NCBI GenBank assembly: GCA_905235375.1
Contig: CAJOLH010000040.1
Coordinates: 9,028-73,027 of the forward strand
Origin: an uncultured Bacteroidales bacterium
GTDB taxonomy: Bacteria; Bacteroidota; Bacteroidia; Bacteroidales; UBA3663
DNA: 64,000 nucleotides
Reading direction: 5' to 3'
Part shown: piece by piece, positions 5,698 to 46,438 of the stretch
Layout: every line of letters begins with the position of its first letter
How positions within the stretch are numbered: position 1 is the stretch's first letter
Translations under genes and position numbers: made by a program
Notes under the pieces: model-generated
The model's database searches: none
Seen by the model: the letters and a program-made list of their open reading frames with translations, nothing else
Told to the model about the DNA's origin: nothing

Positions 5698-5714
5698 TCT
5701 AATCTTAACCTATT

Positions 5715-7418: not shown

Positions 7419-7473
7419 TAATGGGTGGCTTCGGGGGACGGTCAGATCCACATAAAGCCCTTTTATTAATAAC

Positions 7474-10430: not shown

Positions 10431-10432
10431 GG

Positions 10433-19041: not shown

Positions 19042-21537
19042 TTACATTATAACTTCGACGACGTGTTTGCCTGGGGTCGCCTTGATGACATTGCCCTCAA
19101 TGACCTTGCCATCGACGGTAATGCAGCTGACGCCCTTCTGCTTGCCGTTGGGGTTCTTGAAGGTGATGTCGAATTCGATGCCGCGAAGTATTCGTTTCAC
19201 TTTGTACTCCTTGAGGTCGGCAGGAATGCAGGGGTCAATCTCGATGCCGTCGTAGGTCGGTTTGATGCCGAGGATGAACTGTGTGATGGTGTACCAGTTC
19301 CAGGCGGCAGTGCCCGTCAGCCAGGAGTTTTTGCCTTCACCAGGCTTGGCAGCATCCTTGCCTGCTACCATCTGGCAATAAACGTAAGGTTCGACCTTGT
19401 GCAGTGTTTGGTCTTTGATCCAGGCCGGGCAGATTTTGGTGTAGTGTTCCCAGGCATCGTTGCCACGACCTGCCACGGTTTCACCGATGATGACCCATGG
19501 ATTGTTGTGGCAGAAGATGCCCGCATTCTCCTTGTAGCCGGCAGGGTACGAACTGATTTCGCCCATCTCGACATGATAAGTGGTGTAGGCGGGATTGTTG
19601 AGCACCATGCCGTGTTCGCAGTCGAGGTATTGCTTGCAGGAATCGAGCGCTTTATCAACCATGCCATCTTCAAGGCCGATACCAGCCATGGTGCAGAAGC
19701 CCTGCGATTCGATGAAGATCTTGCCTTCCTCGTTTTCCTTCGAACCTATTTTATTGCCATAGAAGTCGTAGGCGCGCAGATACCATTCGCCATCCCAACC
19801 ATGCTGCTTGACGGCTTCGACCATCTCGTCGATGCATTGCTGTGCACGCTTGGCTTCGTCGAGCGCCTTGCCGCCGATGGCCTGGCAGAGTTCGACGTAT
19901 TGCTTGCCGCAGAAGACGAAGAGACCCGCTATCATCAGCGATTCGGCCTTTGAGCCTTCGGTCTTGTTCTCAGTGGTCTGGAATGACTCGTTGGGATCCC
20001 ATGAGAAGCAGTTGAGGTTAAGACAGTCGTTCCAATCAGCGCGGCCGATAAGGGGCAGACGGTGAGGACCGAGGTTTTCGACCACGTGATTGAACGAGAT
20101 GCGCAGGTGCTCCATCAAGGTGACTTCGGTGCCAGGCTGGTTGTCCCAAGGCACCATTTCGTCGAGGATGCCGAAGTCGCCCGTCTCCTTGATGTAGGCG
20201 ATGGTGCCGAAGATGAGCCACATCGGGTCGTCGTTGAAGCCGCCGCCGATGTCATTGTTGCCGCGTTTGGTGAGCGGCTGGTACTGATGGTAGCAACCGC
20301 CATCGGGGAACTGGGTGGATGCGATGTCGATGATGCGCTGGCGAGCTCGGCTGGGTACCTGATGCACAAAGCCCACCAGATCCTGGTTCGAATCGCGGAA
20401 GCCCATGCCTCGGCCCACACCACTCTCGAAGAACGAAGCCGAGCGTGAGAAGTTGAACGTGATCATACATTGGTATTGGTTCCAGATGTTGACCATTCGG
20501 TCCAGTCGCTCGTCGCCACTCCTGACCACATACTTGTCGAGCAGGTTGTCCCACATCGCACGAAGTTCCTCGAATGCGGCATCGACGGCTTCTGTGGTCG
20601 AGAATCTTTGGATGGTCTCGTGGGCTTTCCGCTTGTTGACCAGCGTCACGTCGTTATCCTGCGAGGTGATGAGTGTGCCGTTCCGTTTGCGTTCGATGTC
20701 CTCCTTCGAGAACTTCTCGTCCTGCTCGTTCTCGACATAGCCAAGCAGGAAGATGAAGTCTTTCGATTCGCCAGGCTGGAGCGTTACTTCGATGTAATGA
20801 CTTGCAATGGGTGACCAGCCATGGGCCAACGAATTTGCGGGACGTCCGGCCATGACGCATTGGGGAGCCTCAAAACCATTATAGAGTCCGACAAACGTTT
20901 CGCGGTCGGTATCGTAGCCTTGCACGGGAACGTTGACCGTGTAGTATGCATAGTGGTTGCGTCGTTCCTTGTATTCAGTCTTGTGGTAAATGGTCGATCC
21001 GTCAATCTCCACTTCGCCCGTTGACCAGTTGCGCTGGAAGTTCTCCATGTCGGTGGCAGCATTCCACAGGCACCATTCTGCCAGCGAGAAGAGTTTGAGA
21101 TGCTTAACTTCGGCACTTTGATTGGTGAGAGTGACCTTCTGCACTTCTGCCCAAGTCTTGAGCGGCACGAAGAAGAGCACGGAGGCCTTCACCCCGTTCT
21201 TCGAGCCGGTGATGCGGGTATAGTTCATGCCATGACGGCACTCGTAGCTGTCGAGGGGAGTCTTGCAGGGTTTCCATCCAGGGTTCCACACCGTGCCTCC
21301 GTCGTTGATGTAGAAGTAGCGTCCTCCATTGTCCATGGGCACACTGTTGTAGCGGTAGCGGGTGATGCGGCGGAACTTGGCATCCTTGTAGAAATTGTAG
21401 CCGCCCGCTGTGTTGGAGATGAGACCGAAGAAATCTTCGTTCCCGAGGTAGTTGATCCAAGGGAATGGTGTTGCGGGGTCGGTGATGACGTACTCGCGGT
21501 TGGTATCATCGAAGTGACCAAACACTTTAGTTTCCAT
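19042..21537 (-). CDS. GH94 cellobiose (beta-1,4-glucan/mannan disaccharide) phosphorylase
   Basis: 831 aa. N-terminus [27 protein letters not shown], then [39 protein letters not shown] and [10 protein letters not shown]. This closely resembles my recollection of cellobiose phosphorylases. Confidence 0.9.
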
Positions 21538-32444: not shown

Positions 32445-32452
32445 TATCTTTG
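32445..32452 (+). promoter_or_regulatory. Candidate -7 box (TATCTTTG) for the CxxCH lipoprotein / glycerate kinase pair
   Basis: Matches TAnnTTTG 22 nt upstream of the ATG at 32474 and overlaps the track's TTG start. Confidence 0.45.
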
Positions 32453-32473
32453 TGCCCGTTAATAATAGAAAGA

Positions 32474-33928
32474 ATGAAAACATTTTCCCTCTTCCTTCTT
32501 GCATCTTTCCTTTTCCTTGCCTCATGCGGCGAGCGTGTCAGCAATGCAACGAATGATGCCTCTTTGCCCGACATTTACCCCGACTATGTGGATGTGACCA
32601 TCCCTGTTGGCATTGCTCCGCTCAACTTCGGCATGAAGAGCGACGATGCGCTGCTGGTCGATGCCGTCATCACGGATGCGAAAGGCCACACGCTGCATGG
32701 CCAGGGTCGTGAGACCACGGGATTCGACCTCGACAACTGGCACCAACTGCTTGCGCAGAATGTAGGCGACTCACTCTCGGTCACCGTCTCTGCCAAGTTT
32801 GCCGATCAGCCTTTCCACTTCTACGTCAGCACCGACAGCATCGACTACGGCCTCTGCTATCGCCTCATCGAACCGGGCTACGAGGTGTGGAGCAAGATGG
32901 GCATCTATCAGCGTAACCTTTCGAACTTCGAGCAGACACCGCTCATCGAGAATACGCAATTCCAGGGCTGTGTCAACTGCCACGGCTTCAACCGTGGCGA
33001 CCCGACGCGCATGAGCCTTCACATCCGTGGAGATCATGGAGCAACCCTGCTGCTCGACGAGGGCAAACTGACGGCCTACAACACCAAGACCGATCGCACC
33101 CTCGGCTTCTGCGTCTATCCCTACTGGCACCCATCGGGCAAATACATCGCCTACAGCGTCAACACCACCCGACAGACTTTCCACAGCCGCAATGCAAACC
33201 GCATCGAGGTGTTCGACACAGCTTCGGATATTCAGGTCTATGACGTCGAGCACAATCAGCTCATCATCACCCCTTCGCTCATGACCGACTCGCTCTACGA
33301 GACCTTCCCCGTCTTTTCAGCCGATGGACGCACTCTCTATTTCTCTGCTGCACATGCCCTTCCCGAGGGAAATATGCAGATCGATTCGGTGCGCTATAGC
33401 CTCTACAGCATCGACTTCGATGCCGACAAGGGGGCTTACGGCTCTTCCATCCGAAGGGTCATCGACCATGGCGACAGCTGCTCGGTCTGTTTCCCCCGTC
33501 CCAGCTACGATGGCCGCTTCTTGGTTTATTCGGTGGCGAACTACGGGCAGTTCAGCATCTGGCATCACGAAGCCGACCTTTGGATGCTCGACCTGCAGAC
33601 TGGGGAGTGTCGCCCGATGGAAGAGATCAATAGTGACGACACCGAAAGCTTCCACAATTGGAGCAGTAATTCGCGCTGGATGGTGTTCAGTTCGCGCCGC
33701 GATGACGGTCTCTTCACCCGTCCCTACTTCACCCACATCGATGCCGAGGGTCACGCTACCAAGCCCTTTATGCTTCCGCAGAAGAATCCTCGCCGCTTCT
33801 ATCGCGAGCTCTTCATGTCGTACAACGTGCCCGATTTCATTCGTGCCCGCGTCGAGTTCGACAACGTGGAGGCCGTCCGTCTTATCAATGCAGACTATCG
33901 CAAGCCGATGGGAGTGGTAGAGAAATGA
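32474..33928 (+). CDS. Lipoprotein with one CxxCH heme c motif and a TolB/PD40-like beta-propeller C-terminal half (paralogue A), function unknown
   Basis: Lipobox LFLASC. CVNCH at 32969-32983. Repeated S(A/P)DG(R/K)xL(Y/V)(F/Y) propeller-type motifs. Clearly paralogous to 37049-38527. Confidence 0.6.
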   Translation: MKTFSLFLLASFLFLASCGERVSNATNDASLPDIYPDYVDVTIPVGIAPLNFGMKSDDALLVDAVITDAKGHTLHGQGRETTGFDLDNWHQLLAQNVGDSLSVTVSAKFADQPFHFYVSTDSIDYGLCYRLIEPGYEVWSKMGIYQRNLSNFEQTPLIENTQFQGCVNCHGFNRGDPTRMSLHIRGDHGATLLLDEGKLTAYNTKTDRTLGFCVYPYWHPSGKYIAYSVNTTRQTFHSRNANRIEVFDTASDIQVYDVEHNQLIITPSLMTDSLYETFPVFSADGRTLYFSAAHALPEGNMQIDSVRYSLYSIDFDADKGAYGSSIRRVIDHGDSCSVCFPRPSYDGRFLVYSVANYGQFSIWHHEADLWMLDLQTGECRPMEEINSDDTESFHNWSSNSRWMVFSSRRDDGLFTRPYFTHIDAEGHATKPFMLPQKNPRRFYRELFMSYNVPDFIRARVEFDNVEAVRLINADYRKPMGVVEK

Positions 33929-33944
33929 TGGAAGTGAGGGAGAA

Positions 33945-35000
33945 ATGAAGGTAATCGTTGCAATAGATTCGTTCAAGGGTTGCATGACTTCGGTCGAAGC
34001 CAATCGGGCGGCGGCTGAGGGCATACGTCAGGTGTGCCCTGATGCGGAAATTGTGCAGGTGCCCGTCAGCGATGGAGGCGAAGGGTTTCTGGAGGCTTTT
34101 CATGCAGCCATCGGAGGAGAACTGATGGCGGTGACTGTCAGCGATCCGCTGATGCGTGAAGTCACGGCAAGGTATCTGTTGAAGGAGGAAACTGCCGTAA
34201 TTGAAATGGCCCAAGCCAGTGGATTGACACTGCTCACGCAGGAAGAGCGCAATCCGATGGTCGCCACAAGCTACGGTACAGGCCAGCTGGTGGTCGATGC
34301 CGTTCGGAAAGGTGCCCGCCACGTCATCGTAGGTCTTGGAGGCAGTGCAACGAGCGATGCGGGCATGGGAATGCTCCGCGCCATTGTCGATGCCTTTGCG
34401 GTGAATGAGCGATGGGAGGACTTCGAGGAACTGAAGGACGTACGTTTCACGATAGCCACCGACGTAAGGAATCCCCTGTGTGGAGAGAATGGGGCTGCCT
34501 TTGTTTTCGCTCCACAAAAGGGTGCAACGCCCGAGATGGTGACCCGATTGGACGAACGGGCAAGAAAGTTCGCCGAAGTCTCTGCCCGCCATTTCGGCTT
34601 CGACCGTTCGCAGATGGAGGGCGCAGGCGCCGCTGGTGGACTTGGCTATGCGTTTCTGCAATACCTTGATGCGTCATGCAAACCGGGAATACAGCTGTTG
34701 CTCGAAACAATCCGTTTCGAGCAACTTGTTCGCGATGCCGATCTTGTCATCACCGGCGAGGGTTCGGCCGATAGGCAGACGCTGATGGGTAAACTTCCCG
34801 TAGGAATCCTCGAGCAATCCCGAAATATCCCTGTCTGCCTGATTGCAGGACGGGTCAGCGACCGCGCCCCGTTGCTACAAGCAGGTTTTTCCAGGGTGGA
34901 ATGTATCAATTCTCCGGATATCGCGCTCGAAGAGGCGATGCGCAAGAATATTGCAACGTTGAATATTGCTAATACTGTGCGCAGAATGTTGGAAGCCTGA
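33945..35000 (+). CDS. glxK: Glycerate kinase
   Basis: 351 aa starting MKVIVAIDSFKGCMTSVEA...VPVSDGGEGFLEAF, with GLGGSATSDAGMG and ITGEGSADRQTLMGK. This is the typical glycerate kinase family pattern. Confidence 0.9.
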   Translation: MKVIVAIDSFKGCMTSVEANRAAAEGIRQVCPDAEIVQVPVSDGGEGFLEAFHAAIGGELMAVTVSDPLMREVTARYLLKEETAVIEMAQASGLTLLTQEERNPMVATSYGTGQLVVDAVRKGARHVIVGLGGSATSDAGMGMLRAIVDAFAVNERWEDFEELKDVRFTIATDVRNPLCGENGAAFVFAPQKGATPEMVTRLDERARKFAEVSARHFGFDRSQMEGAGAAGGLGYAFLQYLDASCKPGIQLLLETIRFEQLVRDADLVITGEGSADRQTLMGKLPVGILEQSRNIPVCLIAGRVSDRAPLLQAGFSRVECINSPDIALEEAMRKNIATLNIANTVRRMLEA

Positions 35001-35059
35001 CCATCAATAGCTGCAAACAGATTCCGTACGCTAAATTTCTATTCCCCGCTGGTATGCGT

Positions 35060-35545
35060 CCAATTTACGATAGTGAATTGGACTCGCACTTTCGGCGCAT
35101 ACCCTTTCTTGGCCAGGATTGGTTATGCTCCCGCAGAAGAATAACCATTTTCAGCCAAGACTGGTCATGCCTCGAACAGATAAAGCACTCTGATGCGCGA
35201 CAGGATGCTTGCTCAGTTCGGAGAATGACCTTTTTCGGCCAGGATTGGTCATGCTGCTATCGGATGAGTCCATTTTACGATAGTGAATTGGACTCGCACT
35301 TTCGGCGCATACCCTTTCTTAGCCAGGATTGGTCATGCTGCTATCGGACGAGTCCATTTTACGTTCGTAAATTGGACTCGCACTTTCGGCGCATACCCTT
35401 TCTTGGTCAGGATTGGTTATGCTCCCGCAGAAGAATGACCATTTTCAGCCAAGATTGGTCATGCCTCGAACAGATGAAGCACTCTGATGCGCGACAGGAT
35501 GCTTTATCCGATTGCGGTATGACCAATCTTGGCCAAAAAAGGGTA
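35060..35545. repeat. Composite nested repeat array: two units of about 150 bp, one partial unit, six direct copies and one inverted copy of a 28-bp ACCnTTTynnRGCCARGAyTGGTyATGC module
   Basis: Units at 35060-35210 and 35353-35504 differ by about 8 mismatches in my manual alignment. Module copies start at 35101, 35144, 35228, 35311, 35395 and 35438, with an inverted copy at 35517-35544. Confidence 0.85.
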
Positions 35546-35558
35546 TCCTTGCGTGTAA

Positions 35559-37052
35559 TTATTGCTTTGCGGACGTCTGACGAGGGGATTTGCTATAGTT
35601 GTTGCGGTTGTCTGTCAGCAGATGGTAGGCCATCAGATATTGATAGGCGAGGTGATTGTCGGGGTTGCTGAGGTAGAGGTTTTGGAGCAGGTCCGGCGTC
35701 ACGTGGTCGCCGAAGAAAAAGTCATCTTTGCACGCCATCTGGCGCAGGCGCCCGTATTCGGGATGGCTGGCTATGGCCTGCTCGTCGCCCAGCAATTGTA
35801 GAGTTTCGTTCGCCCATTCACGATAGAAGAGCGTCTTTTGCAGCGCCAGGAGGTATTTGCGTGCCACTTCGTAGCTTCCGCCAATCAGATTGGTCTGTGC
35901 GAGCCGTTTGTAGCATCTGCCGCTCTTTTGGAAGTCGAGGATCGCCTCCTGCGCTTCGAACACCGTCCGCTGCGCCATGGCAATCATGCCCAGCTGATAG
36001 TATGCTTCGGCTGTGGGCAGAGGACTGGTGGCATCGCGTTTGACATCGGGCAGCAACCCTGCGAGGCCATTCTGATGATAATCGAACAGGTGGTCGATGA
36101 GCTTGCCGTGCATCGCCAGGGCAAGGTTCTGCACCGTCACGCCAATCTGATTGTTGGGCTTTTCGGTGCTGATGGTCTGAAGGATGCGGTTCCATTGCTG
36201 GTGACATGCCATGAAGTCGTATTTCATCACCCGTTCTGCCTTGAAATTGCTGTTGCGCCACACGAGGCATCCCATACAGATAGCCACAACCACCCACGAG
36301 ACATGGGGAATGAGTGACGAGGAAGCATTGTCCCGACTATGGCTGAAGTGCCCTAAGAGCGCAATGACGATGACCGACAGGGCGGCAGCCCATAGCATGG
36401 TTGCAACTTCCGTAGGGAAGCGATGATAATGTATGCCGACCCATAAACGATCGACAGGAACAGGGAGAAAGCGTGGCAGTAAGGCAAGCATGACGGCAAG
36501 CAGTGCGAACGGAGCGAAATAGGCGAGCGAGCGCTCGGGGTGCGGTGACTGCAGGAGAAGGAATACCACGCTGACGGGTCCCGCCGCCCAATAGAGCACA
36601 GGCACGGCAACAAGGAGCAGCACGCGTCGCATCCCGCCGTCAGGCAGCTTGTCGAAACCCCACGAGGCGAGCAGCGTGAGCAACATTGCCCAAACGCCAC
36701 CCAACAGCGCATTCTCGTCAAGCAGAAAGAGCCAGAGCAGCAACGAGGGCATAAAGCTCAGACCATACAGCCGTCCCCACCCGACCAATCGGAGTGTCAG
36801 CAGCTGCACCAGCGAGAGCAGCACCCCAATGATAGTGGCGCCCACCCAGGCAAAAAGGAAGAACTGCGTGCAGAAGCGACCGAGCAGGTCGGCTATGCTG
36901 CCTGGCAAGCGGATGATGTCCCAAACGTAGGTGCTGTCGAAGAGGAAAAGCTGGAACTGCTCCTGATAATGCAGATGATGCGGATAGGCGAGTCCGAAGA
37001 AGAGGACAACTGCCACTCCGAAAAGGAGGGTGTAAAGGAATGAAGGTTTCAT
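35559..37052 (-). CDS. Polytopic membrane protein with a C-terminal helical (TPR-like) domain, paralogue B (DUF6057-like, from memory and unverified)
   Basis: 497 aa with about 8 N-terminal TM helices and a soluble alpha-helical C-terminal half (…LFYREWA…YLMAYHLL). Paralogous to 38540-40285. 4-nt overlap with the upstream gene. Confidence 0.55.
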   Translation of the reverse strand: MKPSFLYTLLFGVAVVLFFGLAYPHHLHYQEQFQLFLFDSTYVWDIIRLPGSIADLLGRFCTQFFLFAWVGATIIGVLLSLVQLLTLRLVGWGRLYGLSFMPSLLLWLFLLDENALLGGVWAMLLTLLASWGFDKLPDGGMRRVLLLVAVPVLYWAAGPVSVVFLLLQSPHPERSLAYFAPFALLAVMLALLPRFLPVPVDRLWVGIHYHRFPTEVATMLWAAALSVIVIALLGHFSHSRDNASSSLIPHVSWVVVAICMGCLVWRNSNFKAERVMKYDFMACHQQWNRILQTISTEKPNNQIGVTVQNLALAMHGKLIDHLFDYHQNGLAGLLPDVKRDATSPLPTAEAYYQLGMIAMAQRTVFEAQEAILDFQKSGRCYKRLAQTNLIGGSYEVARKYLLALQKTLFYREWANETLQLLGDEQAIASHPEYGRLRQMACKDDFFFGDHVTPDLLQNLYLSNPDNHLAYQYLMAYHLLTDNRNNYSKSPRQTSAKQ

Positions 37053-38527
37053 TGGAGTACCTGACTAAATTCTTTGATGCTGATGCGGACGGGTTCGATC
37101 ATGAACTCCGGACGGTTGTAGCACTTCAGACGGAAGGTGTCGGATTCGGGATCTTCCTGCGGCAAAAGGAAGGCTTTCGCGGCTTTTCCATCCTTGAAAT
37201 AGGAGAAATAGACATGGGTGAAGTTGCCATCTCCTCGGCGGCTGGAACACATGATCCAATGTCCGTTGCTCGACCAGGTGGGGTAGCTTTCGGCAAACCC
37301 TTCGCTGTTCAGGTTGGTGAGATCGACTGACGGAAGCGCCTGCCCGTCGAGCGGCATACAGGCAATGTCGCCATCGCTATGCCGGATGTGGAAACATCCA
37401 TACTGCCCTTGGGCGAAGAGCAGATAGCGGCCGTCGGGACTGACGCGAGGCAATGTTGCGCTCTTGTCATGCGAGGCAGCATCATAGACGAGCTCTTCGT
37501 CGCCAAAGCTGTGCGTTGCCAAGTCGAACGGACGGCGATAGAGGTTGTATTGCACTTTCCGGTAGGTTGATATGATATCCTTGTCGCGTAACTCCTCGGG
37601 AAGTGGGACGGTCTTGCAGTAATAGAGATATTTGCCATCGGGTGACCATGTGGGATACACCTCTAAAAGGGTGGAATCGTTGCTGATGATGCTCACCGAG
37701 TCGGTTGCCACGTCGTAGAGGATCAGGTCGCTGGCAAGGTCGAAGACCTCAATCTTGTTGGGATGTGCCGTATGGAATGCCTGCCGCGTCATGCAGGCTG
37801 CAAAGGCTACCAGCTTGGCAGTAGGATGCCATGCCGGATAAGCTCCGGCGGAGATGGTATAGTCGCGTTTCAAATCAACTTTCGAGACCTTGCCATCGTT
37901 CACAATTACCGTGCCACCATTGGAGAGGCGCACGTGGAAGAGCATATTATCAGTCTTGTAGTTCTGATAGCTGTGGCAGTTGATGCACTGGCCTTTGGCC
38001 CTGTCGTCGCAGGCAATCTCGTTGTTGAAGACCTGTGTCTCGTCGAACGAGGTGAGGTTGCGCTGGGCAATCTCCATGAACGACCATCCTGCATACGACG
38101 GCTCGATGAGGCGATAGGTCAGATATTCGTCGATAGGCTCCTGGGCCACAAGTATCTCGAACGGGTTGAACGATAGCCATTCGCCCTTCGTCTTCCCCCA
38201 GACTTCCACCCTGAGGCTCTTGCCCTTCGAGAGGTTGAGCATGGCGTGCCATTCGGCCTCGGGTATCTGCACCTTTACGCCGTCGCCATAGGTCTGCTGC
38301 CTGCCATCGGGCAGAGTGAAACGTGCCACACACTCCTCGAAATCTCCTGCGGGGAGCATGAAGTTGAGAGGCGCGATGTTGCAGGGCACGGTGACATTGC
38401 AGTAATCGGGGTAGATGGCTGGCAGACATTCAGCCTCGTGGCTTGAGGCCGGCACATCGGGATGATGCGTACATGAGGACAAGAACAGCAGGGCAGCAGC
38501 CAGCAGCAGGAATCGGGGAAAAGTCAT
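37049..38527 (-). CDS. Lipoprotein with one CxxCH heme c motif and a TolB/PD40-like beta-propeller (paralogue B), function unknown
   Basis: Lipobox LFLSSC. CINCH at 37973-37987 (complement). Shares LPxIYPDYxxVTxPxxIAPLNF, YRLIEPxY, QRNLxxF, NxIEVFDxASD and WSSNxxWxxxSSRRxDGxFT with paralogue A. Confidence 0.6.
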   Translation of the reverse strand: MTFPRFLLLAAALLFLSSCTHHPDVPASSHEAECLPAIYPDYCNVTVPCNIAPLNFMLPAGDFEECVARFTLPDGRQQTYGDGVKVQIPEAEWHAMLNLSKGKSLRVEVWGKTKGEWLSFNPFEILVAQEPIDEYLTYRLIEPSYAGWSFMEIAQRNLTSFDETQVFNNEIACDDRAKGQCINCHSYQNYKTDNMLFHVRLSNGGTVIVNDGKVSKVDLKRDYTISAGAYPAWHPTAKLVAFAACMTRQAFHTAHPNKIEVFDLASDLILYDVATDSVSIISNDSTLLEVYPTWSPDGKYLYYCKTVPLPEELRDKDIISTYRKVQYNLYRRPFDLATHSFGDEELVYDAASHDKSATLPRVSPDGRYLLFAQGQYGCFHIRHSDGDIACMPLDGQALPSVDLTNLNSEGFAESYPTWSSNGHWIMCSSRRGDGNFTHVYFSYFKDGKAAKAFLLPQEDPESDTFRLKCYNRPEFMIEPVRISIKEFSQVLQ

Positions 38528-38539
38528 GGTGATGAGGTA

Positions 38540-40285
38540 TTAATAGATTTTTCTGCCGAAGATGTTGTACCACCAGTAGGTGCCGCCCCAATCTTCACGC
38601 ATTGTTTCGCCAATCTTATCCAGTTGCTGGTTCGACCTTGCCTGTCGCTCCAGGGTCTCCCAGAACTGTTTGTAGCGCTCGTAAACCGCCTGTTCGACGG
38701 GGAGCATGAGCCGTTTCTCTTCCGGCGACTTGTCCATGAACATGATATAAGCCTCCTGTGCATGCAAGGGGAATTTCCCGTCGGGGTGCAGTCTCACATA
38801 TTTGCGCAGCGATTGCCAGAAGCGTCGGGAGTCGCGGCGCATCATGGCATAGAACAGTGCCTGTTCGGAGGCAACCTTGCTGTCGGATTCGTACCAGAGG
38901 CTGATGCTGTTGACAATATAACTGTCGCTGTTCTCCGTGCCGGTAAGTTCGTCGGGGAAGGAGTGTTGCAGTTCCTGTACCGTTTCGGAGACTGGTGCTG
39001 GTTGCCAATCCCCGTAGAACAGATGATGATGGAGCAGGGTGTTATAGCGTTCCTCCAGTTTCACGTCACCAGAGGCGTGGGCACAGCGGGAGAGCATCTT
39101 CAGGTAGAAGGGGGAGAACCCTGTTCGAATGGCATTTTCGTAAGCCAGACGGATGGCTTCATTCATCATGCCATAGTTGTAATATACCAGAGGCGATGCG
39201 ATGTTCAGGAGTCTGACATGGAGCGAATCGGGGGTGTTGACCTCTCCACCGTTGTTGCCTAACTTGAACGAACGTTCGAGCAGTCCACCTTCGTTCATCA
39301 TGGCAATGTTCCTGAGCATGACCATCGTGACGGTTGGTTTCGGCGTGTCTGCTGCCACATGAAGGACACGCTCCCAGTCGTCGTCGGCAGCATAGCGCAC
39401 CATGCGCATCTCGTCGATGTAGTTCCGATCCTGGAACATGAGGGACATGGTGAAAATGATGCCGGCGGCAGCACATATCATCGGAACAAACCATCGGGAA
39501 AGATACCTGCTGCACAGCGGAATGAGCACCGAGACTGCTGCAAGCACCTGGAACGGGATGGAGAGATGAGTGCCGGAGTCATGAGCCGTTGCGAAACGAG
39601 GCCAGCCCGCCAGCATGACATCTTCGGCGTTCAGACCAGAATATAGAAGCACCCGCCAGATGTGAGCGGCAAAGATGAGCAGGATGATGCCCAGCAGTTC
39701 CCGCCAGGTCGGTTTCCCCAAAAGGGCAAGACACAGCACGAAGAGCATGGCAAACCAACCAAGCACGGGATAGGCGCAGAAGGCAAGCAGATACCAGACA
39801 AGATGCCACCGCCGTGGGGTGCAGCGTGCCGCCCACAGGCACAGCAGCATGACCAGATAGCCCAACGACTGGGAGAACCAATAGCCGGCAAACGGGGAAA
39901 TATAGATTCGATAGCCGACCTCGACAACCGATGCGAGCAGACAGGCAACCGGCAGGAGCATCAGGGCAGAGGCTTCGCCCTGGAGCTGGAATGCCTTTGT
40001 GCCCGCAAGGAAGATGAGGGTCCAGAGACCCATCAGCACCAATGCACCTAAGGCTGGATAATAGAACAACTGGGTGATCCAGGCTCCAGCATATTGCATC
40101 AGGCCAAAGGGCTTCGAAACAAGCGTATGGAAATAGGACGCTCCGATGAAGAATTCAGAACGGTCGTGTGCCGTGTAGAGCACCTCCTGATTTATATATA
40201 ATATGTATATGACAAATGCAATGAAAGCCAATAGACTTACATTGAGAATGACCGCAGCTGCCTTGTTTCTCGGATTCACTTCCAT
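38540..40285 (-). CDS. Polytopic membrane protein with a C-terminal helical domain, paralogue A (DUF6057-like, unverified)
   Basis: About 581 aa from the ATG (MEVNPRNK; the track uses a TTG at 40291). It has N-terminal TM helices and shares the ...PGxxxxxxGxxxTQxF... and ...LFYxxW... motifs with 35559-37052. Confidence 0.55.
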   Translation of the reverse strand: MEVNPRNKAAAVILNVSLLAFIAFVIYILYINQEVLYTAHDRSEFFIGASYFHTLVSKPFGLMQYAGAWITQLFYYPALGALVLMGLWTLIFLAGTKAFQLQGEASALMLLPVACLLASVVEVGYRIYISPFAGYWFSQSLGYLVMLLCLWAARCTPRRWHLVWYLLAFCAYPVLGWFAMLFVLCLALLGKPTWRELLGIILLIFAAHIWRVLLYSGLNAEDVMLAGWPRFATAHDSGTHLSIPFQVLAAVSVLIPLCSRYLSRWFVPMICAAAGIIFTMSLMFQDRNYIDEMRMVRYAADDDWERVLHVAADTPKPTVTMVMLRNIAMMNEGGLLERSFKLGNNGGEVNTPDSLHVRLLNIASPLVYYNYGMMNEAIRLAYENAIRTGFSPFYLKMLSRCAHASGDVKLEERYNTLLHHHLFYGDWQPAPVSETVQELQHSFPDELTGTENSDSYIVNSISLWYESDSKVASEQALFYAMMRRDSRRFWQSLRKYVRLHPDGKFPLHAQEAYIMFMDKSPEEKRLMLPVEQAVYERYKQFWETLERQARSNQQLDKIGETMREDWGGTYWWYNIFGRKIY

Positions 40286-40296
40286 ACTCAAAAAGC

Positions 40297-40334
40297 ATAA
40301 TAAGCTGACTCATTTGATTGAGCCAGCTCATTAT
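40297..40334. other. Imperfect 16-bp stem-loop in the spacer between the small lipoprotein gene and the membrane/heme triad
   Basis: ATAATAAGCTGACTCA (40297-40312) and TGAGCCAGCTCATTAT (40319-40334), with 2 mismatches and a 6-nt loop. Confidence 0.5.
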
Positions 40335-40356
40335 TGATTAAACCGACATGGGGGGA

Positions 40357-41082
40357 TTATTCCTCATAGTAAACACTGGTGAAGGATGCTTCACCGTTGG
40401 TGAGCAGAAGGTTCAAGTCACGACCTTCACCGCCGTTGCCTCGGGCGCAATCCTTGGCAATCTGCTCGGTGATTTGCACCTCCCACTTCATGCCTGAAGT
40501 CAAGGGGATATTGTCCTCATAAGTGGTGCTCCACCAGCCGTTCATGATGCGGGCAGTGCAGCCCTCGCTGGCTTCCTTGACGTCAACGATGAGGGTCTTC
40601 AGGCCGAAATAGACTTCGTCGGAGAGGTAGGGGAAGTTCTTGCCCTCGTTGTCGCTGAAGCGCAGAGGTGCTGCATCCCATGAGCCGACGGAGAACTCAC
40701 CTTCCCAGATGATGTACTTCGTGAGCGGATTGGTGATCTCCTGACAACTAACAGGGTAGTTGGCCTCAAGCAGGGTGCCGTCAGCACAAAGTGCTCTCAA
40801 GGTAACGGTATGATCACCAAGCTTCAGCTTCTTCCAGTAATAATTGTTGGCAACAATCTTTCCTTCATCACCATCGACAAACCAGGCGGCATTGACGGGT
40901 GCAGAGGTCGTACAAGTGATGACGTTGCCATTCACTCCACTGGCAGCCTTGTCAGTAGTGACAGTAGTCATAGCCTTGAGCTCGTCAAGAGAGATGTGAC
41001 CGTCATTGCTGATATCCTCCTCAACGGAATCACAGGCAACAAACGCACACATAATGGCGATAAATAAAAATATCTTTTTCAT
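40357..41082 (-). CDS. Small surface lipoprotein (SGBP position; Ig-like N-terminus plus Trp-rich CBM-like C-terminus)
   Basis: Lipobox CAFVAC. The C-terminal half (IIWEGEFSVGSWDAAPLRF...IMNGWWSTTYE...) resembles the C-terminal modules of the 785-aa SGBP in PUL 1. Confidence 0.55.
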   Translation of the reverse strand: MKKIFLFIAIMCAFVACDSVEEDISNDGHISLDELKAMTTVTTDKAASGVNGNVITCTTSAPVNAAWFVDGDEGKIVANNYYWKKLKLGDHTVTLRALCADGTLLEANYPVSCQEITNPLTKYIIWEGEFSVGSWDAAPLRFSDNEGKNFPYLSDEVYFGLKTLIVDVKEASEGCTARIMNGWWSTTYEDNIPLTSGMKWEVQITEQIAKDCARGNGGEGRDLNLLLTNGEASFTSVYYEE

Positions 41083-41100
41083 ATTGATTACTTGTAAAAA

Positions 41101-43002
41101 TTAATTGTAAAGATCCACATATTGAGTTTCCGGGTTAGCTGCGTCCCAACCAGGGTTCTGCTCAAGATTACCATTCATCAGGGTAATCTGTGACTGAGGC
41201 TTAGCCAAGAAACCATTGGTCTCGGCATATCGCTTAGCCCATGAGCAAGTCATGTGCCTCATAGAGACCTTGTTTGCAGTATTGCCCTTGACGACAATCT
41301 GCTTGCCGGCCTGTGCCTGAAGAGCCCTGGCAGCGTATGAATCCTCACCGGAGTCTTTACCCGACCAGCGACGCATATCGTTGAAACGAAGTCCCTCGAA
41401 TGCAAACTCCCAGCGGCGCTCGTCCTGAACGGCCTTCAGAGAGTACGGTGTCAGAGGAACGCCGGCACGAGCCTGAACCTGGTTCATGTAGGAAGCATCG
41501 CCCGTAAGCTCGGTCAGCATCAGCAGCACATCAGCATAGCGCATCAGGTAGAAATCCTCAAAGTGGCATCCCTGCATGGAATTTCCAAGAGTGCCTCCCG
41601 AATTGAAATCAGGATTGACAGCCTCCCACCAGGGTGTGTCACCTGTCAGCGCATCAAGCGTGACACCGTTCCACTTCTTTACGCCATAGCCGGACTCCTC
41701 ACAGTCGTCCTTTACGTAAGAGTATTCTGTAAGTTCATTCTCACAGTCAATCAAGGAACCAAGTTTGCGGATGTCGGTGTAGCCGCCAGTGACCTCTGCA
41801 TTGGTCCAGTCGTCCCAGATGTTGCACGAAGGAGTGCCCTGGCCCCAGCCCTGGGTGAACGGATAGGTGTAGTCACGATTACCGTTGTTGCCGTTTACAC
41901 GGAGAGCCCACCAGCACGAAAGATAGTTGCAATACATACGTGCAGTGGAATAGGTTCCACCAATATTCCAATTGGAAGCATTCATGAACTGGATCTGGAA
42001 GAGCTCCTCATCGTTGCCGTTGCCCATGCCGGGCTGGTCGAAGCAGTTCTCTCGCTTCATGTCGGCGATGAAGTCGTAGGCATGGCCTGTGCCGTTGCCG
42101 GTAGCATCCTCATTGTCGTGAGCCTCATCCCAGAGCAGACTGTTGGAGTACTGCCAGAGTGAACGGTAGTCTTCAAGAAGTTTGTAGGCACCGCTGGAAA
42201 CGACCTCCTTCAGACCAGCGACAACATCTGACTGGGAAAGAGACCCCGAGCAACCCTCCTGCTCAACGAGTTCGATGGCAGGGCCAGAACCGCCGGCAAG
42301 TTCACCAGCCTTCTTGTAGAAGCCAGCCCAGAACATATAGGCACGGGCAAGGAAAGCCTCGGCAACATACTTGTTGGCATGGCCTGAATTCTTCTCACCG
42401 CTCATGAGGTTCTTGCCAGATACTAAGTCGGAAAGGATCTGAGGATAAATAACATCCTCGGCACTGACCTGCTTCTTCATCTCCTCGGTAATGAGGGTGG
42501 AAGTGATCAGGGGCACATCGCCATACAGCTGAGTGAGCCAGAGCGTGTAGAGACCACGCATGAAATAACCCTCGCCGAGAAGCTGGTTGCGCTTCGACTC
42601 ATTGCCTTTCCAATCCACATTGTCGATGGTCTCAATCTGGTTGTTGGCACGGTTGATACCACCATAGAGCAGTATGAAGGGCATTTCGAACTGGTTAGTA
42701 CTCATCTCAACAAGATGGTGCAAAGCCTTCACCTTGTTGTCCTGCAGACCACCACTGCCGTAGCAGTTGTCGGACATGACTTCCCACCAATAGAAAGGAT
42801 GCTGCGTATCGGCATCTCCACCACCCATGGTATTCATGATACTGTAGGTTGCAGTATTCAATGCCTCCACATCTCCAATCTTGCCAGGGAATGTGGCTTG
42901 AGTGGCATCGGTAACGCGCGGATCGGTGTCCAGCATGTCATCGCAGGATGTAAATATTGCTGCTGAACAAACAACAACTGCTGATAAAATATATTTTTTC
43001 AT
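41101..43002 (-). CDS. SusD/RagB-family lipoprotein (PUL 2)
   Basis: Preferred start MKKYILSAVVVCSAAIFTSCDD (ATG 43002). SusD-like pattern. Downstream of SusC. Confidence 0.9.
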   Translation of the reverse strand: MKKYILSAVVVCSAAIFTSCDDMLDTDPRVTDATQATFPGKIGDVEALNTATYSIMNTMGGGDADTQHPFYWWEVMSDNCYGSGGLQDNKVKALHHLVEMSTNQFEMPFILLYGGINRANNQIETIDNVDWKGNESKRNQLLGEGYFMRGLYTLWLTQLYGDVPLITSTLITEEMKKQVSAEDVIYPQILSDLVSGKNLMSGEKNSGHANKYVAEAFLARAYMFWAGFYKKAGELAGGSGPAIELVEQEGCSGSLSQSDVVAGLKEVVSSGAYKLLEDYRSLWQYSNSLLWDEAHDNEDATGNGTGHAYDFIADMKRENCFDQPGMGNGNDEELFQIQFMNASNWNIGGTYSTARMYCNYLSCWWALRVNGNNGNRDYTYPFTQGWGQGTPSCNIWDDWTNAEVTGGYTDIRKLGSLIDCENELTEYSYVKDDCEESGYGVKKWNGVTLDALTGDTPWWEAVNPDFNSGGTLGNSMQGCHFEDFYLMRYADVLLMLTELTGDASYMNQVQARAGVPLTPYSLKAVQDERRWEFAFEGLRFNDMRRWSGKDSGEDSYAARALQAQAGKQIVVKGNTANKVSMRHMTCSWAKRYAETNGFLAKPQSQITLMNGNLEQNPGWDAANPETQYVDLYN

Positions 43003-43030
43003 AATTATCAATTATCAATTATCAATGGTC
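43003..43030. repeat. Heptamer array (AATTATC x3 plus AATGGTC) filling the SusC-SusD spacer
   Basis: The sense (minus) strand reads ...GATAATTGATAATTGATAATT and abuts the SusD ATG. Confidence 0.85.
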
Positions 43031-43032
43031 AA

Positions 43033-46000
43033 TTAAAACTTGATACTTGCACCAACCAGGTATGTACGTGACGGTGGGTAAAGACCCAGGTCGATTCCAG
43101 AAGCCCATCCTTCGGCACCTGCGGCATTGCCTACCTCAGGGTCGAGGCCAGTATAGCCGGTGAATGTATAGAGGTTCTGAGCCTGAACGTAGAAGCGGAG
43201 CTGCTGCAATGGGCAGGACTTCCAGATCTTCTTGAAGTCGTAACCGAATGTAACGGTCTTGATCTTGAAGTAGTCGGCATCCTCCATGTAGCGGGTAGAA
43301 ACATAGTTGGTATTGGGGTGACCAGTACCCGAGATACGTGGAACGTCGTTCGAGGTGCCTTCACCATGCCAACGATCAAAGATCGTGGTATCGTAGTTGT
43401 GCCACCAGGAATCACTGTAAGAACGGTAAGAACGCATGATCTGCATACCAAATGCACCTGCACCGTTGACAGCGAAATCGAAGCCCTTCCAAGAACATCC
43501 GAGGTTGATACCCAGGGTTACATCGGGGTTAGGATTACCAATCTCATGACGGTCGGTAAGGTCGCCTTCAGCGTAGGTAATCACACCATCACCATTCCAG
43601 TCGTCCCAGATGCAGTCACCAGGCTGTGCGCCATCGAGCACGGCCTTGCCAGCTGCTTTTGCAGCATCAATCTCGGCCTGGTTCTGCCAGATACCACTGT
43701 AAGACATGCCGAAGAAGTAGCCAATGGGCTTGCCCTCCTGGGCACGGTAGATATACTCTGTACCCTGTGAGAGGATACTGGGACTACCATTGATATAGCC
43801 ATTTTCGTTGGCAATACGTGTAACCTCGTTCTTATTGGTAGCAAGGTTCACACCGATGTTGTAATGGAAGTCCTTGCCAACCTGGTCGTTCCAGGTGAGA
43901 GCAATTTCCACACCCTTGTTCTCAACGTCACCGCCATTGATGTAAGCAGGGTTGGTACCCTCGATGGCAATACGCGGGGCAACAATAAGCCAGTCCTTGG
44001 TGGTCTTCTTATACCAGTCGAAGTTCAAGCCCAAACGGCTGTCGAGGAAACGTGCATCGAAACCGAAGTCAAGCTGCTCGGAAGTCTCCCATGTTACATC
44101 AGGATTAGGCACGATGTTAGCGTAAGCACCGACATTGGGCTTGCCGGTCAAAGTGAAGTCCATGCTGTCGCTGAACTTATAGCCGCTATCACCTGCACTG
44201 CCCGACTGGGCAATGGTAGCCAGATACTGGTACTTGGCAATACGGTTGTTACCGTTCTGGCCCCAGGAAGCACGGATCTTGAAGAAGTCGAGCCAGCTGC
44301 TGGTGCTCTCCATGAACGACTCATTGGAAACTACCCAACCGGCAGATACAGAGGGGAAGGAGCCCCAACGATTACCCTCGGAGAAGATGCTCGAACCGTC
44401 GTAACGCATGGTAAAGGTGGCCATATAGGTTTCTTTCCAGTCCCAAGTCACACGACCGAACCAGGATGCCAGATACTCATCGTCATTGGGGTAGCCATCA
44501 AGAGAAGCATTGCTGAGGTCGGTGCTGAAATTGCGCAGCCATGCCGAATTCCAATCCTTGAGAGTAGCATACTGCGACCCCTCATTAACATTGTTGGAAC
44601 CACTGAGGTTGGTACTCCAGCCAGAGCTCTGGAAAGTCTGACCGACCATCGCGCTGATCTTATGACCACTGATAATAGGAAGGTCGTAGGTAAGCGTATT
44701 CTCAATGGAGTAGTTGGTGCTCAACCAAGTGCTCTGGCTGACACTATATGTTGAAACAGTGCCTGAACCAGAAGAGGGAGAACGTGGCTCTCCGAAGCTG
44801 CGATAGGCACCAGAGCTCCAGTTGAAGTTGAACTGACTGCGGAATCTCAGGCCCTTGATAGGCTGGATAACCAAGAAAGCAGTAGCACTGGTGTTGATGT
44901 TGCGGCTTTCGGCCATGGAGTTGAAGCCACCCTTTGAGAGACCCTCGTAGGGATTGTTGAACCAATAGTCGTTCCACTTGGTGCCAGGAATAGGATTACC
45001 GGCCTCGTCATACAGTTCACCATAATTAACATGGTTATAAAGCTCACCATTGTCATCATAAATAGGTACGAGCGGGTTCGTCTGGAGCAGACTGTGGATA
45101 TAGCTCCAGTACATGCCGTCCTCAGCCAGGTCGTGGTTCTTGTTGTAGCCGATAGAGATGTTCTCACCGATGGTGATGGCATCGAAGTCCTTCACTTTCA
45201 GAAGCACGTGATCGCTGTTGATGCGGATAGTATGGCGCTTGTAGTAAGATGCCTGATCAGCACCCATGATGCCTTCATTGCCGGTATAGGTATAGGACAA
45301 TGCAAACTTTGAACGATCGGAACCACCGGTCATGGTCACAGAATGATTCTGCTGCAAGGCATTGTCGTTCTCGAATTCACCCCACCAGTCAGTGCCTTCC
45401 CAACCGTTGGCAACACGATTAAGAATGTACTGCGGAACATAATCCGAGAAGTTGACCTTCTGGCCAGAAGTGTTAAAGCTGTACTCATCCATAATGGTCA
45501 GATACTGCTGGGCATTCAGCATCTGTGGGCGCTTGTAAACGTTAGACCAGCCGAAGACACCGTTGTAGCTGAGCTCAATCTTTCCAGCCTTGCCCTGCTT
45601 CGTGGTTACGAGGATCACACCGTTGGCAGCACGAGAACCGTAGATGGCTGCAGAGGCAGCGTCCTTCAGCACGTCGATCGACTCGATATCGTTCGGGTTG
45701 ATGCCGTCGAGGTTGCCGCCAGCCACACCGTCGATTACATACAGAGGCTGAGAGTCACCGATGGTGCCGACACCACGGATGAAAACCTTGTAGCCCTTGC
45801 CAGGCTGCGACGACGACTGGGTGATCTGCACACCGGGAGTGCTCGACTGCATGGCTTCGAGTGCGTTGGTGGTGTTCAGCTTGGAGATGTCATCACCCTT
45901 AACCTGAACGGTGGCACCTGTCACCAGCTTCTTCTTCATGGTACCGTAACCGATGACAACCACATCCTCGAGTGACTGACTGTCCTCGTGAAGGGTGATG

Positions 46001-46308
46001 GTCATGTTGGGAGCGGCCTTGACAGAAACGGATACGTAGCCGATGAAGCTGATCTCAAGCTCAGAGCCAGCGGGTGTATCCAATGAGAACTTGCCGTCGA
46101 TGTCGGTGACGGCACCATTTGTAGTACCTTTGACGCGAATGTTGGCGCCGATAACGGGGTCGCCAAACTCGTCAACTACAGTACCGGTAATCTTCTGGTT
46201 TTGTGCTTCCACAGTTTGCATCAAACTTGGAGCTACGAAACCAGGAGCACCACTAATAAGCAACATGGTTAGACCAGCTGCAAGCCAAGTGTTTCTTGTT
46301 TTGCTCAT
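43033..46308 (-). CDS. SusC-family TonB-dependent transporter (PUL 2)
   Basis: 1091 aa with a signal peptide, a carboxypeptidase-regulatory-like domain (ITGTVVDEFGDPVIGANIRVKGTTNG), a plug and C-terminal ...YLVGASIKF. Confidence 0.9.
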   Translation of the reverse strand: MSKTRNTWLAAGLTMLLISGAPGFVAPSLMQTVEAQNQKITGTVVDEFGDPVIGANIRVKGTTNGAVTDIDGKFSLDTPAGSELEISFIGYVSVSVKAAPNMTITLHEDSQSLEDVVVIGYGTMKKKLVTGATVQVKGDDISKLNTTNALEAMQSSTPGVQITQSSSQPGKGYKVFIRGVGTIGDSQPLYVIDGVAGGNLDGINPNDIESIDVLKDAASAAIYGSRAANGVILVTTKQGKAGKIELSYNGVFGWSNVYKRPQMLNAQQYLTIMDEYSFNTSGQKVNFSDYVPQYILNRVANGWEGTDWWGEFENDNALQQNHSVTMTGGSDRSKFALSYTYTGNEGIMGADQASYYKRHTIRINSDHVLLKVKDFDAITIGENISIGYNKNHDLAEDGMYWSYIHSLLQTNPLVPIYDDNGELYNHVNYGELYDEAGNPIPGTKWNDYWFNNPYEGLSKGGFNSMAESRNINTSATAFLVIQPIKGLRFRSQFNFNWSSGAYRSFGEPRSPSSGSGTVSTYSVSQSTWLSTNYSIENTLTYDLPIISGHKISAMVGQTFQSSGWSTNLSGSNNVNEGSQYATLKDWNSAWLRNFSTDLSNASLDGYPNDDEYLASWFGRVTWDWKETYMATFTMRYDGSSIFSEGNRWGSFPSVSAGWVVSNESFMESTSSWLDFFKIRASWGQNGNNRIAKYQYLATIAQSGSAGDSGYKFSDSMDFTLTGKPNVGAYANIVPNPDVTWETSEQLDFGFDARFLDSRLGLNFDWYKKTTKDWLIVAPRIAIEGTNPAYINGGDVENKGVEIALTWNDQVGKDFHYNIGVNLATNKNEVTRIANENGYINGSPSILSQGTEYIYRAQEGKPIGYFFGMSYSGIWQNQAEIDAAKAAGKAVLDGAQPGDCIWDDWNGDGVITYAEGDLTDRHEIGNPNPDVTLGINLGCSWKGFDFAVNGAGAFGMQIMRSYRSYSDSWWHNYDTTIFDRWHGEGTSNDVPRISGTGHPNTNYVSTRYMEDADYFKIKTVTFGYDFKKIWKSCPLQQLRFYVQAQNLYTFTGYTGLDPEVGNAAGAEGWASGIDLGLYPPSRTYLVGASIKF

Positions 46309-46430: not shown

Positions 46431-46438
46431 CAAAGATA
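46431..46438 (-). promoter_or_regulatory. Candidate -7 box (TATCTTTG) for SusC of PUL 2
   Basis: The complement of caaagata lies about 120 nt upstream of the ATG at 46308. Other TAnnTTTG-like matches occur in the same AT-rich 314-bp spacer. Confidence 0.35.

Follow-up and report, generated by a model that had tools for sequence, protein, structure and literature searches.

A SusCD-linked cassette of paired DUF6057 membrane proteins and C-x-N-C-H propeller lipoproteins in rumen and gut Prevotella

Introduction

Nutrient acquisition in gut and rumen Bacteroidota centres on Sus-like systems, of which the known components are an outer-membrane importer, binding proteins at the cell surface, glycoside hydrolases, sensors and permeases of ordinary kinds. 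The locus described here, found in a 64-kb stretch of DNA (the window) from an uncultured Bacteroidales bacterium (contig CAJOLH010000040.1), links a SusC/SusD importer instead to two copies of a two-protein module. Each copy pairs a polytopic membrane protein of the DUF6057 family (PF19529; DUF6057-A and DUF6057-B) with a lipoprotein built on PD40 repeats and bearing a C-x-N-C-H sequence, a candidate site for a c-type haem (PD40c-1 and PD40c-2). The SusCD part of the locus is ordinary; the DUF6057-PD40c module is without a characterised relative, and DUF6057 is without a recognisable fold.

Several described systems resemble parts of the locus. With classical polysaccharide utilisation loci it shares adjacent SusC and SusD genes, a probable surface lipoprotein encoded after them and Bacteroidetes promoter motifs upstream; it differs in lacking a glycoside hydrolase, a regulator and an MFS-type permease, the place of which is taken by the two DUF6057-PD40c pairs. 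TolB, the best fold match of PD40c, likewise combines an N-terminal domain with a PD40-type propeller and, like PD40c as predicted here, is periplasmic. Unlike TolB, PD40c is a lipoprotein, carries the C-x-N-C-H motif and a conserved segment (YPDY...NIAPLNF), and is encoded with DUF6057 rather than with tolQRA and pal. BtuG-type proteins are surface-exposed transporter caps that bind corrinoids. Two of them, the Bacteroides proteins BT1954 and BT2095, are propeller lipoproteins encoded by TonB-dependent transporter genes and match the fold of PD40c (E ~1e-7), but no better than unrelated propellers do; PD40c moreover lacks the acidic surface-export stretch and is tied, at times even fused, to an inner-membrane protein rather than to a transporter. 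Finally, the cytochrome cd1 nitrite reductase NirS and hydrazine synthase are exported proteins that combine a c-type haem motif with a propeller. They rank 47th and 48th among the fold matches of PD40c, whose conserved histidines and arginines on successive blades can be likened to theirs. In those enzymes, however, haem c sits in a separate cytochrome domain, whereas the motif of PD40c is modelled at the first propeller strand; no cytochrome domain is detectable in PD40c and no sequence relationship is apparent. To our knowledge, a TolB-like lipoprotein with a haem motif is not a described kind of protein. A literature search found no paper on DUF6057 or PF19529, nor relevant work on a CXXCH propeller associated with SusC in Bacteroides.

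Results and Discussion

A seven-gene cassette conserved amid changing surroundings

Calling of open reading frames (ORFs) in the window recovered all six minus-strand ORFs at the positions, and with the spacers, assigned to them in a preliminary description made from the sequence alone: SusC, SusD, a 241-aa lipoprotein and three genes downstream (Table 1). From SusC to DUF6057-B the spacers measure 30, 18, 71, 12 and -4 bp. The 12-bp spacer precedes PD40c-1, and the start of DUF6057-B overlaps the PD40c-1 stop by 4 bp (ATGA). The start of SusD is uncertain, alternative gene calls placing it in the range 42936-43011. SusC scores 886 bits against TIGR04056 (cut-off 368) and also matches the Plug and CarboxypepD_reg domains; its nearest solved relatives are SusC homologues. 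The two membrane proteins, which the preliminary description had tentatively likened to DUF6057, do belong to that family, scoring 229.3 bits (DUF6057-A) and 464.7 bits (DUF6057-B) against PF19529 (cut-off 29.8). They are also paralogues as proposed, with 27% identity over the juxtamembrane helical region (E 1e-9). As to the sequence motifs attributed to both, TQxF and LFYxxW are indeed common to the two proteins, but DUF6057-A reads PFG where PG had been expected. The view that none of the three downstream genes encodes a glycosidase, a sensor or a known transporter held in Pfam, NCBIfam, PDB and fold searches. Their description as a triad did not: the actual unit consists of two DUF6057-PD40 pairs.

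Close relatives of PD40c-1 form at least 7431 clusters at 90% identity, mainly from Prevotella in rumen and gut metagenomes. The first five related contigs all carried SusC, SusD, a lipoprotein of about 257 aa, DUF6057, PD40, DUF6057 and PD40, all on the same strand. Their flanks were unlike those of the window, with aminotransferase/ABC and GH3/SusR genes in one contig and a transposase or acyltransferase and GT2/Mfd in another. To extend this comparison, one genome per GTDB species was scanned for loci; at least 593 were found and 80 kept, whose ORFs were called and compared with the window proteins (loci are labelled L0xx below and representatives of protein families P0xxx). Loci with a PD40 identity of at least 60% are termed Prevotella-type (n = 63). 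The succession SusD-small lipoprotein-DUF6057-PD40 is kept in 61 of these 63 loci, and all seven genes occur in order in 49. On either side the picture is the reverse: the genes next upstream of SusC in 35 loci make up 25 unrelated clusters, and those following the last PD40 in 45 loci make up 33. Since the internal order is kept while the surroundings turn over, the locus is an autonomous seven-gene cassette, present in rumen and gut Prevotella and standing outside the neighbouring mannan and GH5/AraC clusters. The Rid, GH5, SASA esterase and AraC genes noted upstream on the same strand are all present in the window; the link drawn from them between the cluster and mannan/GH5/AraC genes is not borne out, as these flanks differ in most relatives. 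The proposal of a modular unit tied to SusC/SusD fared better in this lineage, given the 61 loci that keep the arrangement despite differing flanks. Glycoside hydrolases, sensors and regulators are all missing from the conserved seven genes, as are recognised inner-membrane transporters, MFS-type permeases included.

The family expands in tandem (L051/L056; L091/L092). Contig CADCEW010000004.1, which holds L051 and L056, carries two complete cassettes about 20 kb apart.

DUF6057 and PD40c form a unit

DUF6057 lies directly upstream of a PD40 gene in 77 of the 78 loci with enough upstream DNA. The DUF6057-PD40c pair is thus an evolutionary unit and the universal core of these loci. Pairs are often repeated two to four times, as in the arrays of L078, L079, L081 and L091. 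The last of these (L091/L092), from a distant lineage, comprises three DUF6057 and four PD40c genes, one of them for a 31%-identical PD40c representative, plus a small TPR protein, and has housekeeping genes around it.

Single polypeptides in which DUF6057 is followed by the PD40 module account for three of 150 representatives at 50% identity (P0426, P0404 and P0506); these fusions are full-length and arose independently, in three lineages. All three junctions are in frame, have differing linkers and contain no lipoprotein signal peptide. Gene-calling artefacts were considered and rejected on these grounds; P0506, which at first seemed truncated, continues upstream through a complete membrane domain. 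The fusions indicate that DUF6057 and the PD40 module work as one unit. Moreover, as the separate module is exported and the fused one lacks a signal peptide, the C-terminal helical domain of DUF6057 should reside in the same compartment as the PD40 module.

PD40c: a TolB-like propeller with a near-invariant C-x-N-C-H motif

Pfam and Foldseek searches, which the preliminary description had proposed as a check, were informative for PD40c, returning PD40 repeats and a TolB-like fold. PD40c-1 scores 53.4 bits against PD40 (cut-off 20.9). An AlphaFold2 model built from 56 sequences (predicted local distance difference test, pLDDT, 83; predicted template modelling score, pTM, 0.86) has a beta-rich N-terminal domain (residues 30-170, pLDDT 93-98) followed by the propeller. 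Among solved structures the model comes closest to TolB (E 8e-12, about 410 aligned columns, TM 0.44-0.55); next in rank are tricorn, propellers of S9 peptidases and two corrinoid-binding lipoproteins, BT1954 and BT2095. On the strength of this model, PD40c can be described with confidence as a TolB-like two-domain propeller. It is not TolB proper: the score against TIGR02800 is 30 bits for a cut-off of 343, and no tolQRA or pal genes were found in the window or in 85 related loci.

The PD40c family comprises 2133 representatives (50% identity clusters) at E <=1e-3, of which 424 are retained at E <=1e-30. Conservation was counted in 144 full-length representatives, 31-54% identical. C-x-N-C-H occurs exactly once in 143 of them. 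H185, R139 and R200 are found in all 144, N183 in 98%, H234 in 94% and H198 in 88%; an additional histidine, present in 87%, is replaced by proline in PD40c-1. These counts indicate that the motif is under very strong selection, and the combination of a near-invariant C-x-N-C-H with invariant arginines and conserved histidines is the conservation pattern of a cofactor site. Covalent c-type haem is the obvious candidate, given that PD40c is an exported protein and that ResB and CcsA are encoded in the same genome. The protein shows the features expected of a c-type cytochrome in three respects, namely a CxxCH sequence (CINCH in PD40c-1, CVNCH in PD40c-2), a lipoprotein signal peptide and an organism-level maturation system. 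We therefore consider it probable, though well short of certain, that PD40c carries such a haem.

An acidic stretch after the lipoprotein cysteine marks surface export in Bacteroidota lipoprotein sorting. SusD (C-D-D) and the small lipoprotein (C-D-S-V-E-E-D) have it, whereas 95 of 101 PD40c representatives have no more than one acidic residue (0-1) in this region. This difference leads us to infer that PD40c faces the periplasm, not the cell surface, and that the small lipoprotein faces outward. The latter, for which Pfam, NCBIfam and PDB searches, including a profile search, yielded no relative, is probably a surface-exposed protein akin to surface glycan-binding proteins. A link between the importer and the orphan SusCD complex BT2261-64 was considered and dropped, the SusC of the window being far closer to glycan-type SusC homologues.

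DUF6057: a membrane protein with a predicted periplasmic helical domain

A relaxed Pfam scan (E <=1) of 16 diverse members found DUF6057 in all and, beyond that, only a weak RPN7/TPR-like match in five. NCBIfam contains no match, and a profile search of PDB sequences gave none up to E 10. The AlphaFold2 model is poor (pLDDT 62, pTM 0.51); its alignment held 45 sequences at 64-80% identity, and the low quality is attributable to the profile search having collected only close homologues. Given such a model, a Foldseek search against the PDB produced nothing below E 0.3, the matches being weak ones to TPR-like and unrelated membrane proteins.

DUF6057-A has eight hydrophobic segments, the fifth possibly a hairpin, and a C-terminal helical domain of about 300 aa. 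Hydropathy together with lysine and arginine counts in the 16 diverse members likewise gives eight segments and, if the long fifth one is a hairpin, a protein with its N-terminus inside and its C-terminus outside. DUF6057 is accordingly predicted to lie in the inner membrane with a cytoplasmic N-terminus, both the conserved first loop and the helical C-terminal domain being exposed to the periplasm. Conserved positions occur in the first periplasmic loop (L36, T71, Q72, F74) and in the juxtamembrane part of the periplasmic domain (N288, E292, N326, R379, E383, K396, Y414, W427). The membrane helices contain no invariant charged residue, histidine or cysteine, which counts against a membrane subunit with haem b or an iron-sulfur centre without positively favouring a GT-C enzyme or a transporter.

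This pattern bears on two other explanations for the pair. One is inner-membrane uptake, with DUF6057 as a new permease, PD40c as its binding lipoprotein and C-x-N-C-H in a structural or ligand-binding role. The conserved cassette contains no recognised inner-membrane transporter that would otherwise fill this place; fusion of a binding protein to its permease, as could be the case in the three fused proteins, is a familiar pattern; tandem expansion of the L091 kind is typical of substrate-diversified uptake systems; and ligand-binding propeller lipoproteins of TonB-dependent transporters (BtuG BT1954, BT2095) are among the fold matches of PD40c. Against this, DUF6057 is less conserved in its membrane half, where no charged residue is invariant; no likeness to any transporter family or fold was detected, and a plain binding protein would leave the invariant haem-type motif and arginines unexplained. 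We regard uptake as unlikely.

The second explanation, raised in the preliminary description, is that DUF6057 is a GT-C-like transferase. It would glycosylate envelope proteins or glycans from lipid-linked sugars, the propeller presenting the acceptor, and could even be the oligosaccharyltransferase (OTase) or ligase of Bacteroidota O-glycosylation, which is still undiscovered (PMC12871550). The architecture is reminiscent of GT-C enzymes with TPR domains (PMT/TMTC-like): a multi-helix membrane domain whose first helix runs N-in, a first periplasmic loop that is long and contains short helices as well as conserved residues, then periplasmic helical repeats, the conserved residues gathering in the first loop and in the juxtamembrane periplasmic part. 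But no homology or fold match to them is detectable, and neither Pfam, PDB nor Foldseek searches (the last with the poor model) gave a significant match to a GT-C enzyme; the best, STT3A, had E 4.1 and a probability of 0.06. The first loop lacks an invariant catalytic acidic residue: its acidic residue alternates between two adjacent columns, neither of which is invariant. The number of copies, multiple and variable, and the obligatory partner with a haem motif are likewise unlike a universal single-copy OTase. This explanation thus appears very improbable.

A candidate haem-bearing station in the periplasm

c-type haem proteins are overwhelmingly redox proteins. Together with an integral membrane partner that has no cytoplasmic domain, this makes a membrane-anchored redox or processing station the most coherent mechanism for the pair. 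The cassette begins with its outer-membrane importer, composed of SusC, SusD and the small lipoprotein. In the proposed mechanism the periplasmic domain of DUF6057 would hold the PD40c lipoprotein, which would bear a single c-type haem attached by System II machinery at C-x-N-C-H. The haem site would lie at the start of the propeller, beside the invariant arginines and conserved histidines, and in the Prevotella clade the station would act on whatever the SusCD importer delivers. On the model of NrfD/PsrC-type subunits, DUF6057, itself without cofactor, could be the anchor and might also connect the complex to the quinone pool. The analogy is functional only: these proteins too are polytopic, have no conserved haem ligands and are paired with an exported protein bearing a redox motif, but they share no sequence or fold similarity with DUF6057 and lack its large periplasmic helical domain. 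We tentatively favour the general proposition of a periplasmic, candidate haem-c, membrane-anchored complex acting after SusCD import, which we consider plausible without reaching the point of calling it probable. A more specific version, in which DUF6057 and PD40c make up a new class of membrane-anchored periplasmic haem-propeller oxidoreductase working on a TonB-imported substrate, is in our estimate unlikely. In that version the single haem and the ring of propeller histidines and arginines would constitute the active site, and DUF6057 would anchor it in the membrane, perhaps with a connection to the menaquinone pool.

Several observations weigh against the proposed station. Haem binding by PD40c is a prediction from its sequence motif. 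No cytochrome family matched PD40c in Pfam or NCBIfam, and single-sequence and profile searches of the PDB, covering the N-terminal domain and the motif region, gave PD40 propellers only. The AlphaFold2 model places residues 181-187 in a beta-strand, which is atypical for a CxxCH site. The membrane part of DUF6057 has no conserved histidine or cysteine and no invariant charged residue, so that a quinol site there is pure analogy, and the physical interaction of DUF6057 with PD40c is deduced from adjacency and fusion only. The remaining points of this kind concern the connection between the pairs and the importer and are taken up below.

If the haem is real, PD40c would represent a new exported cytochrome family in organisms thought to have very few, and SusCD import would seem to be followed by a periplasmic step not recognised so far. 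Were the oxidoreductase version true, an anaerobe would be doing redox chemistry on a TonB-imported substrate, a step new to Sus-like systems; we know of no redox step on an imported substrate in any of them. The constancy of the pair, the fusions and the existence of cultured hosts, for example Prevotella sp. khp7 and P. aff. ruminicola Tc2-24, open the question to direct testing.

How tightly are the pairs tied to the importer?

The 71-nt spacer between the small lipoprotein and DUF6057-A contains a hairpin with a 16-bp stem and a fold energy of -22.6 kcal/mol (z -4.4). Its stem arms are GGGCUGACUCA...UGAGUCAGCCC, followed by a U-run. Equivalent hairpins occur in L003, L009, L013, L037 and L048 (z-scores -3.9 to -6.7), where stem bases have changed and pairing is preserved. 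The element reads as a terminator or attenuator. In the latter case it may set the ratio of the importer to the downstream genes. The same junction has received selfish-looking genes in five loci (L016, L025, L028, L029 and L030), the inserts being VapE-like/BT4734-like, an AAA-ATPase with a PD-(D/E)XK nuclease, ATPase_2 and DUF4143. Other loci hold Pfam-less ORFs of 385-477 aa there, which may be extra surface lipoproteins. Hairpin and insertions together mark the importer and the pairs as distinct sub-units, which may be joined by attenuated read-through or may belong to separate transcription units; the latter arrangement, like the conserved terminator-like hairpin and the insertions themselves, speaks against a station that serves the importer. 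A sigma-70 promoter scan is uninformative for Bacteroidota, and Rfam identified no known RNA in the window.

Distant lineages contribute two further points on the same side. In loci where PD40 is 46-57% identical, the pair is intact, at times as two tandem pairs, and SusCD is not upstream; distant pairs occur in housekeeping or other contexts, with methylmalonyl-CoA mutase, S9 peptidase or ispH/GT9 as neighbours. A SusC-like ORF is present in the fetched flanks of only 3 of 15 distant loci, about the background frequency. SusC genes are in fact so common (an unrelated second SusC lies in about 10 of the 63 Prevotella-type flanks, and two SusCD pairs in the 64-kb window) that proximity to SusCD outside the Prevotella clade is not clearly above background. 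The neighbourhood statistics thus give the association foreseen in the preliminary description strong backing among Prevotella-type loci and no clear backing among distant ones, and the SusCD link is solid in one clade only.

These observations can be combined into a different account, according to which the pairs are a general Bacteroidales envelope or periplasmic module and the cassette amounts to two adjacent operons, co-inherited or co-transferred, whose products are neighbours rather than partners. The hairpin before DUF6057-A, the ATPase, VapE and PDDEXK genes lodged exactly at the junction, the pairs that stand beside housekeeping genes without SusCD, and the density of SusC genes, which makes chance adjacency common, all accord with it, as does the promoter motif of the displaced PD40c-2 (see below). 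It has more difficulty with a junction preserved in 61 of 63 loci although in most species the genes on both outer sides have changed, and with a cassette importer that has no other inner-membrane or periplasmic partner. Other architectures also put the pair by SusCD: in L080 and L083 a pair, a fasciclin-domain protein, SusC and SusD are tightly packed; in L089 the gene immediately after SusD is a fusion; and in L088 a fusion gene is convergent with SusCD. On balance we judge mere neighbourhood to be somewhat unlikely.

Other neighbours of the pair in distant loci include an EamA transporter (upstream, with methylmalonyl-CoA mutase), GH43, a plain TonB-dependent receptor and, as mentioned, a fasciclin-domain protein with SusC-SusD after it. 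In 7 of the 15 loci the gene next downstream of the pair or pairs, in the same orientation, encodes an S9/DPP-IV-type peptidase (L069, L070, L072, L074, L078, L079 and L081), often with methylmalonyl-CoA mutase upstream. A cobalamin link, which the mutase neighbours and the BtuG fold matches might have evoked, was set aside, the synteny of the former being limited to one group of related loci and the latter being generic for propellers. The contigs of L069 and L078 have Bacteroidales gene content in bins named Roseburia sp. and Methanomethylophilaceae archaeon, probably as a result of mis-binning.

The displaced PD40c-2 and other features of the window

In relatives, PD40c-2 directly follows DUF6057-B. 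In the window, PD40c-2 and a glycerate kinase gene are inverted as one block (32450-35000) relative to this ancestral order. The same rearrangement is found in L037 (uncultured Prevotellaceae RUG465) and is therefore older than the genome of the window. Hence the PD40c paralogue next to the second mannan locus, first taken as a sign of modular reuse, is the displaced fourth post-importer gene of the same cassette. A repeat array about 500 bp in length, downstream of DUF6057-B, marks the rearrangement junction; a 205-aa ORF (35054-35671, plus strand) falls within it and is probably not a gene. The likely PD40c-2 start is the ATG at 32474, although the ORF tool begins at 32450. The match to the TATCTTTG motif just upstream suggests, as motif evidence alone can, that the displaced gene has its own promoter. 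The other copy of this motif, proximal to SusC, sits within a 314-bp intergenic region.

Table 1. Coordinates of the cassette genes and of other features in the 64-kb window.
Feature	Position	Strand	Basis or remark
SusC/RagA-type TonB-dependent outer-membrane transporter, 1091 aa	43033..46308	-	TIGR04056, Plug, CarboxypepD_reg
SusD-family lipoprotein	41101..43002	-	SusD_RagB and SusD-like_3 (Pfam); lipobox then DD
Small lipoprotein, 241 aa	40357..41082	-	Acidic stretch C-D-S-V-E-E-D after lipid-modified Cys
Stem-loop and U-run	40297..40334	-	In 71-nt spacer, small lipoprotein to DUF6057-A
DUF6057-A, polytopic membrane protein, 581 aa	38540..40285	-	PF19529, E 1.5e-67
PD40c-1, lipoprotein, 492 aa	37049..38527	-	PD40 repeats, lipobox LSSC, CINCH; TolB-like build
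CINCH, candidate c-type haem attachment site of PD40c-1, residues 181-185	37973..37987	-	Motif
DUF6057-B, 497 aa	35559..37052	-	PF19529, E 7e-139; shorter C-terminal domain than DUF6057-A
PD40c-2, fourth post-importer gene of the cassette, displaced and inverted	32474..33928	+	36% identity to PD40c-1
CVNCH motif of PD40c-2	32969..32983	+	Candidate haem motif
Glycerate kinase gene	33945-35000		Inverted along with PD40c-2 as a block
Repeat array	35058..35550	.	7 copies of 23-nt core TCTTGGCCAGGATTGGTYATGCT, 84/42-nt spacing, nested inverted repeats
-7 promoter motif TATCTTTG, Bacteroidetes-type	46431..46438	-	About 120 nt before SusC start; motif match only
-7 promoter motif TATCTTTG	32445..32452	+	22 nt before PD40c-2 ATG; motif match only
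System II cytochrome c assembly sets (ResB, CcsA), two	7474-9522 and 9630-11647		
Imelysin (peptidase M75), di-haem oxidoreductase (DHOR), fused ResB-CcsA cluster	4537-9522	+	

The two sets of cytochrome c maturation genes in the window had been cited as evidence for a heme-dependent function of the cassette. They have other plausible clients, and show only that the organism is capable of making c-type cytochromes. The imelysin/DHOR/ResB-CcsA cluster seems to correspond to BT2473-82, an iron-starvation locus of B. thetaiotaomicron (PMC10434189); by this likeness one of the maturation sets would have its own client. Between these genes and the inverted block, a mannan locus with GH26, GH130, GH36 and epimerase genes and its own SusCD spans 11.7-32.3 kb of the window. 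It includes a GH94-family phosphorylase (19042-21537, minus strand), an unusual companion for mannan-degrading genes.

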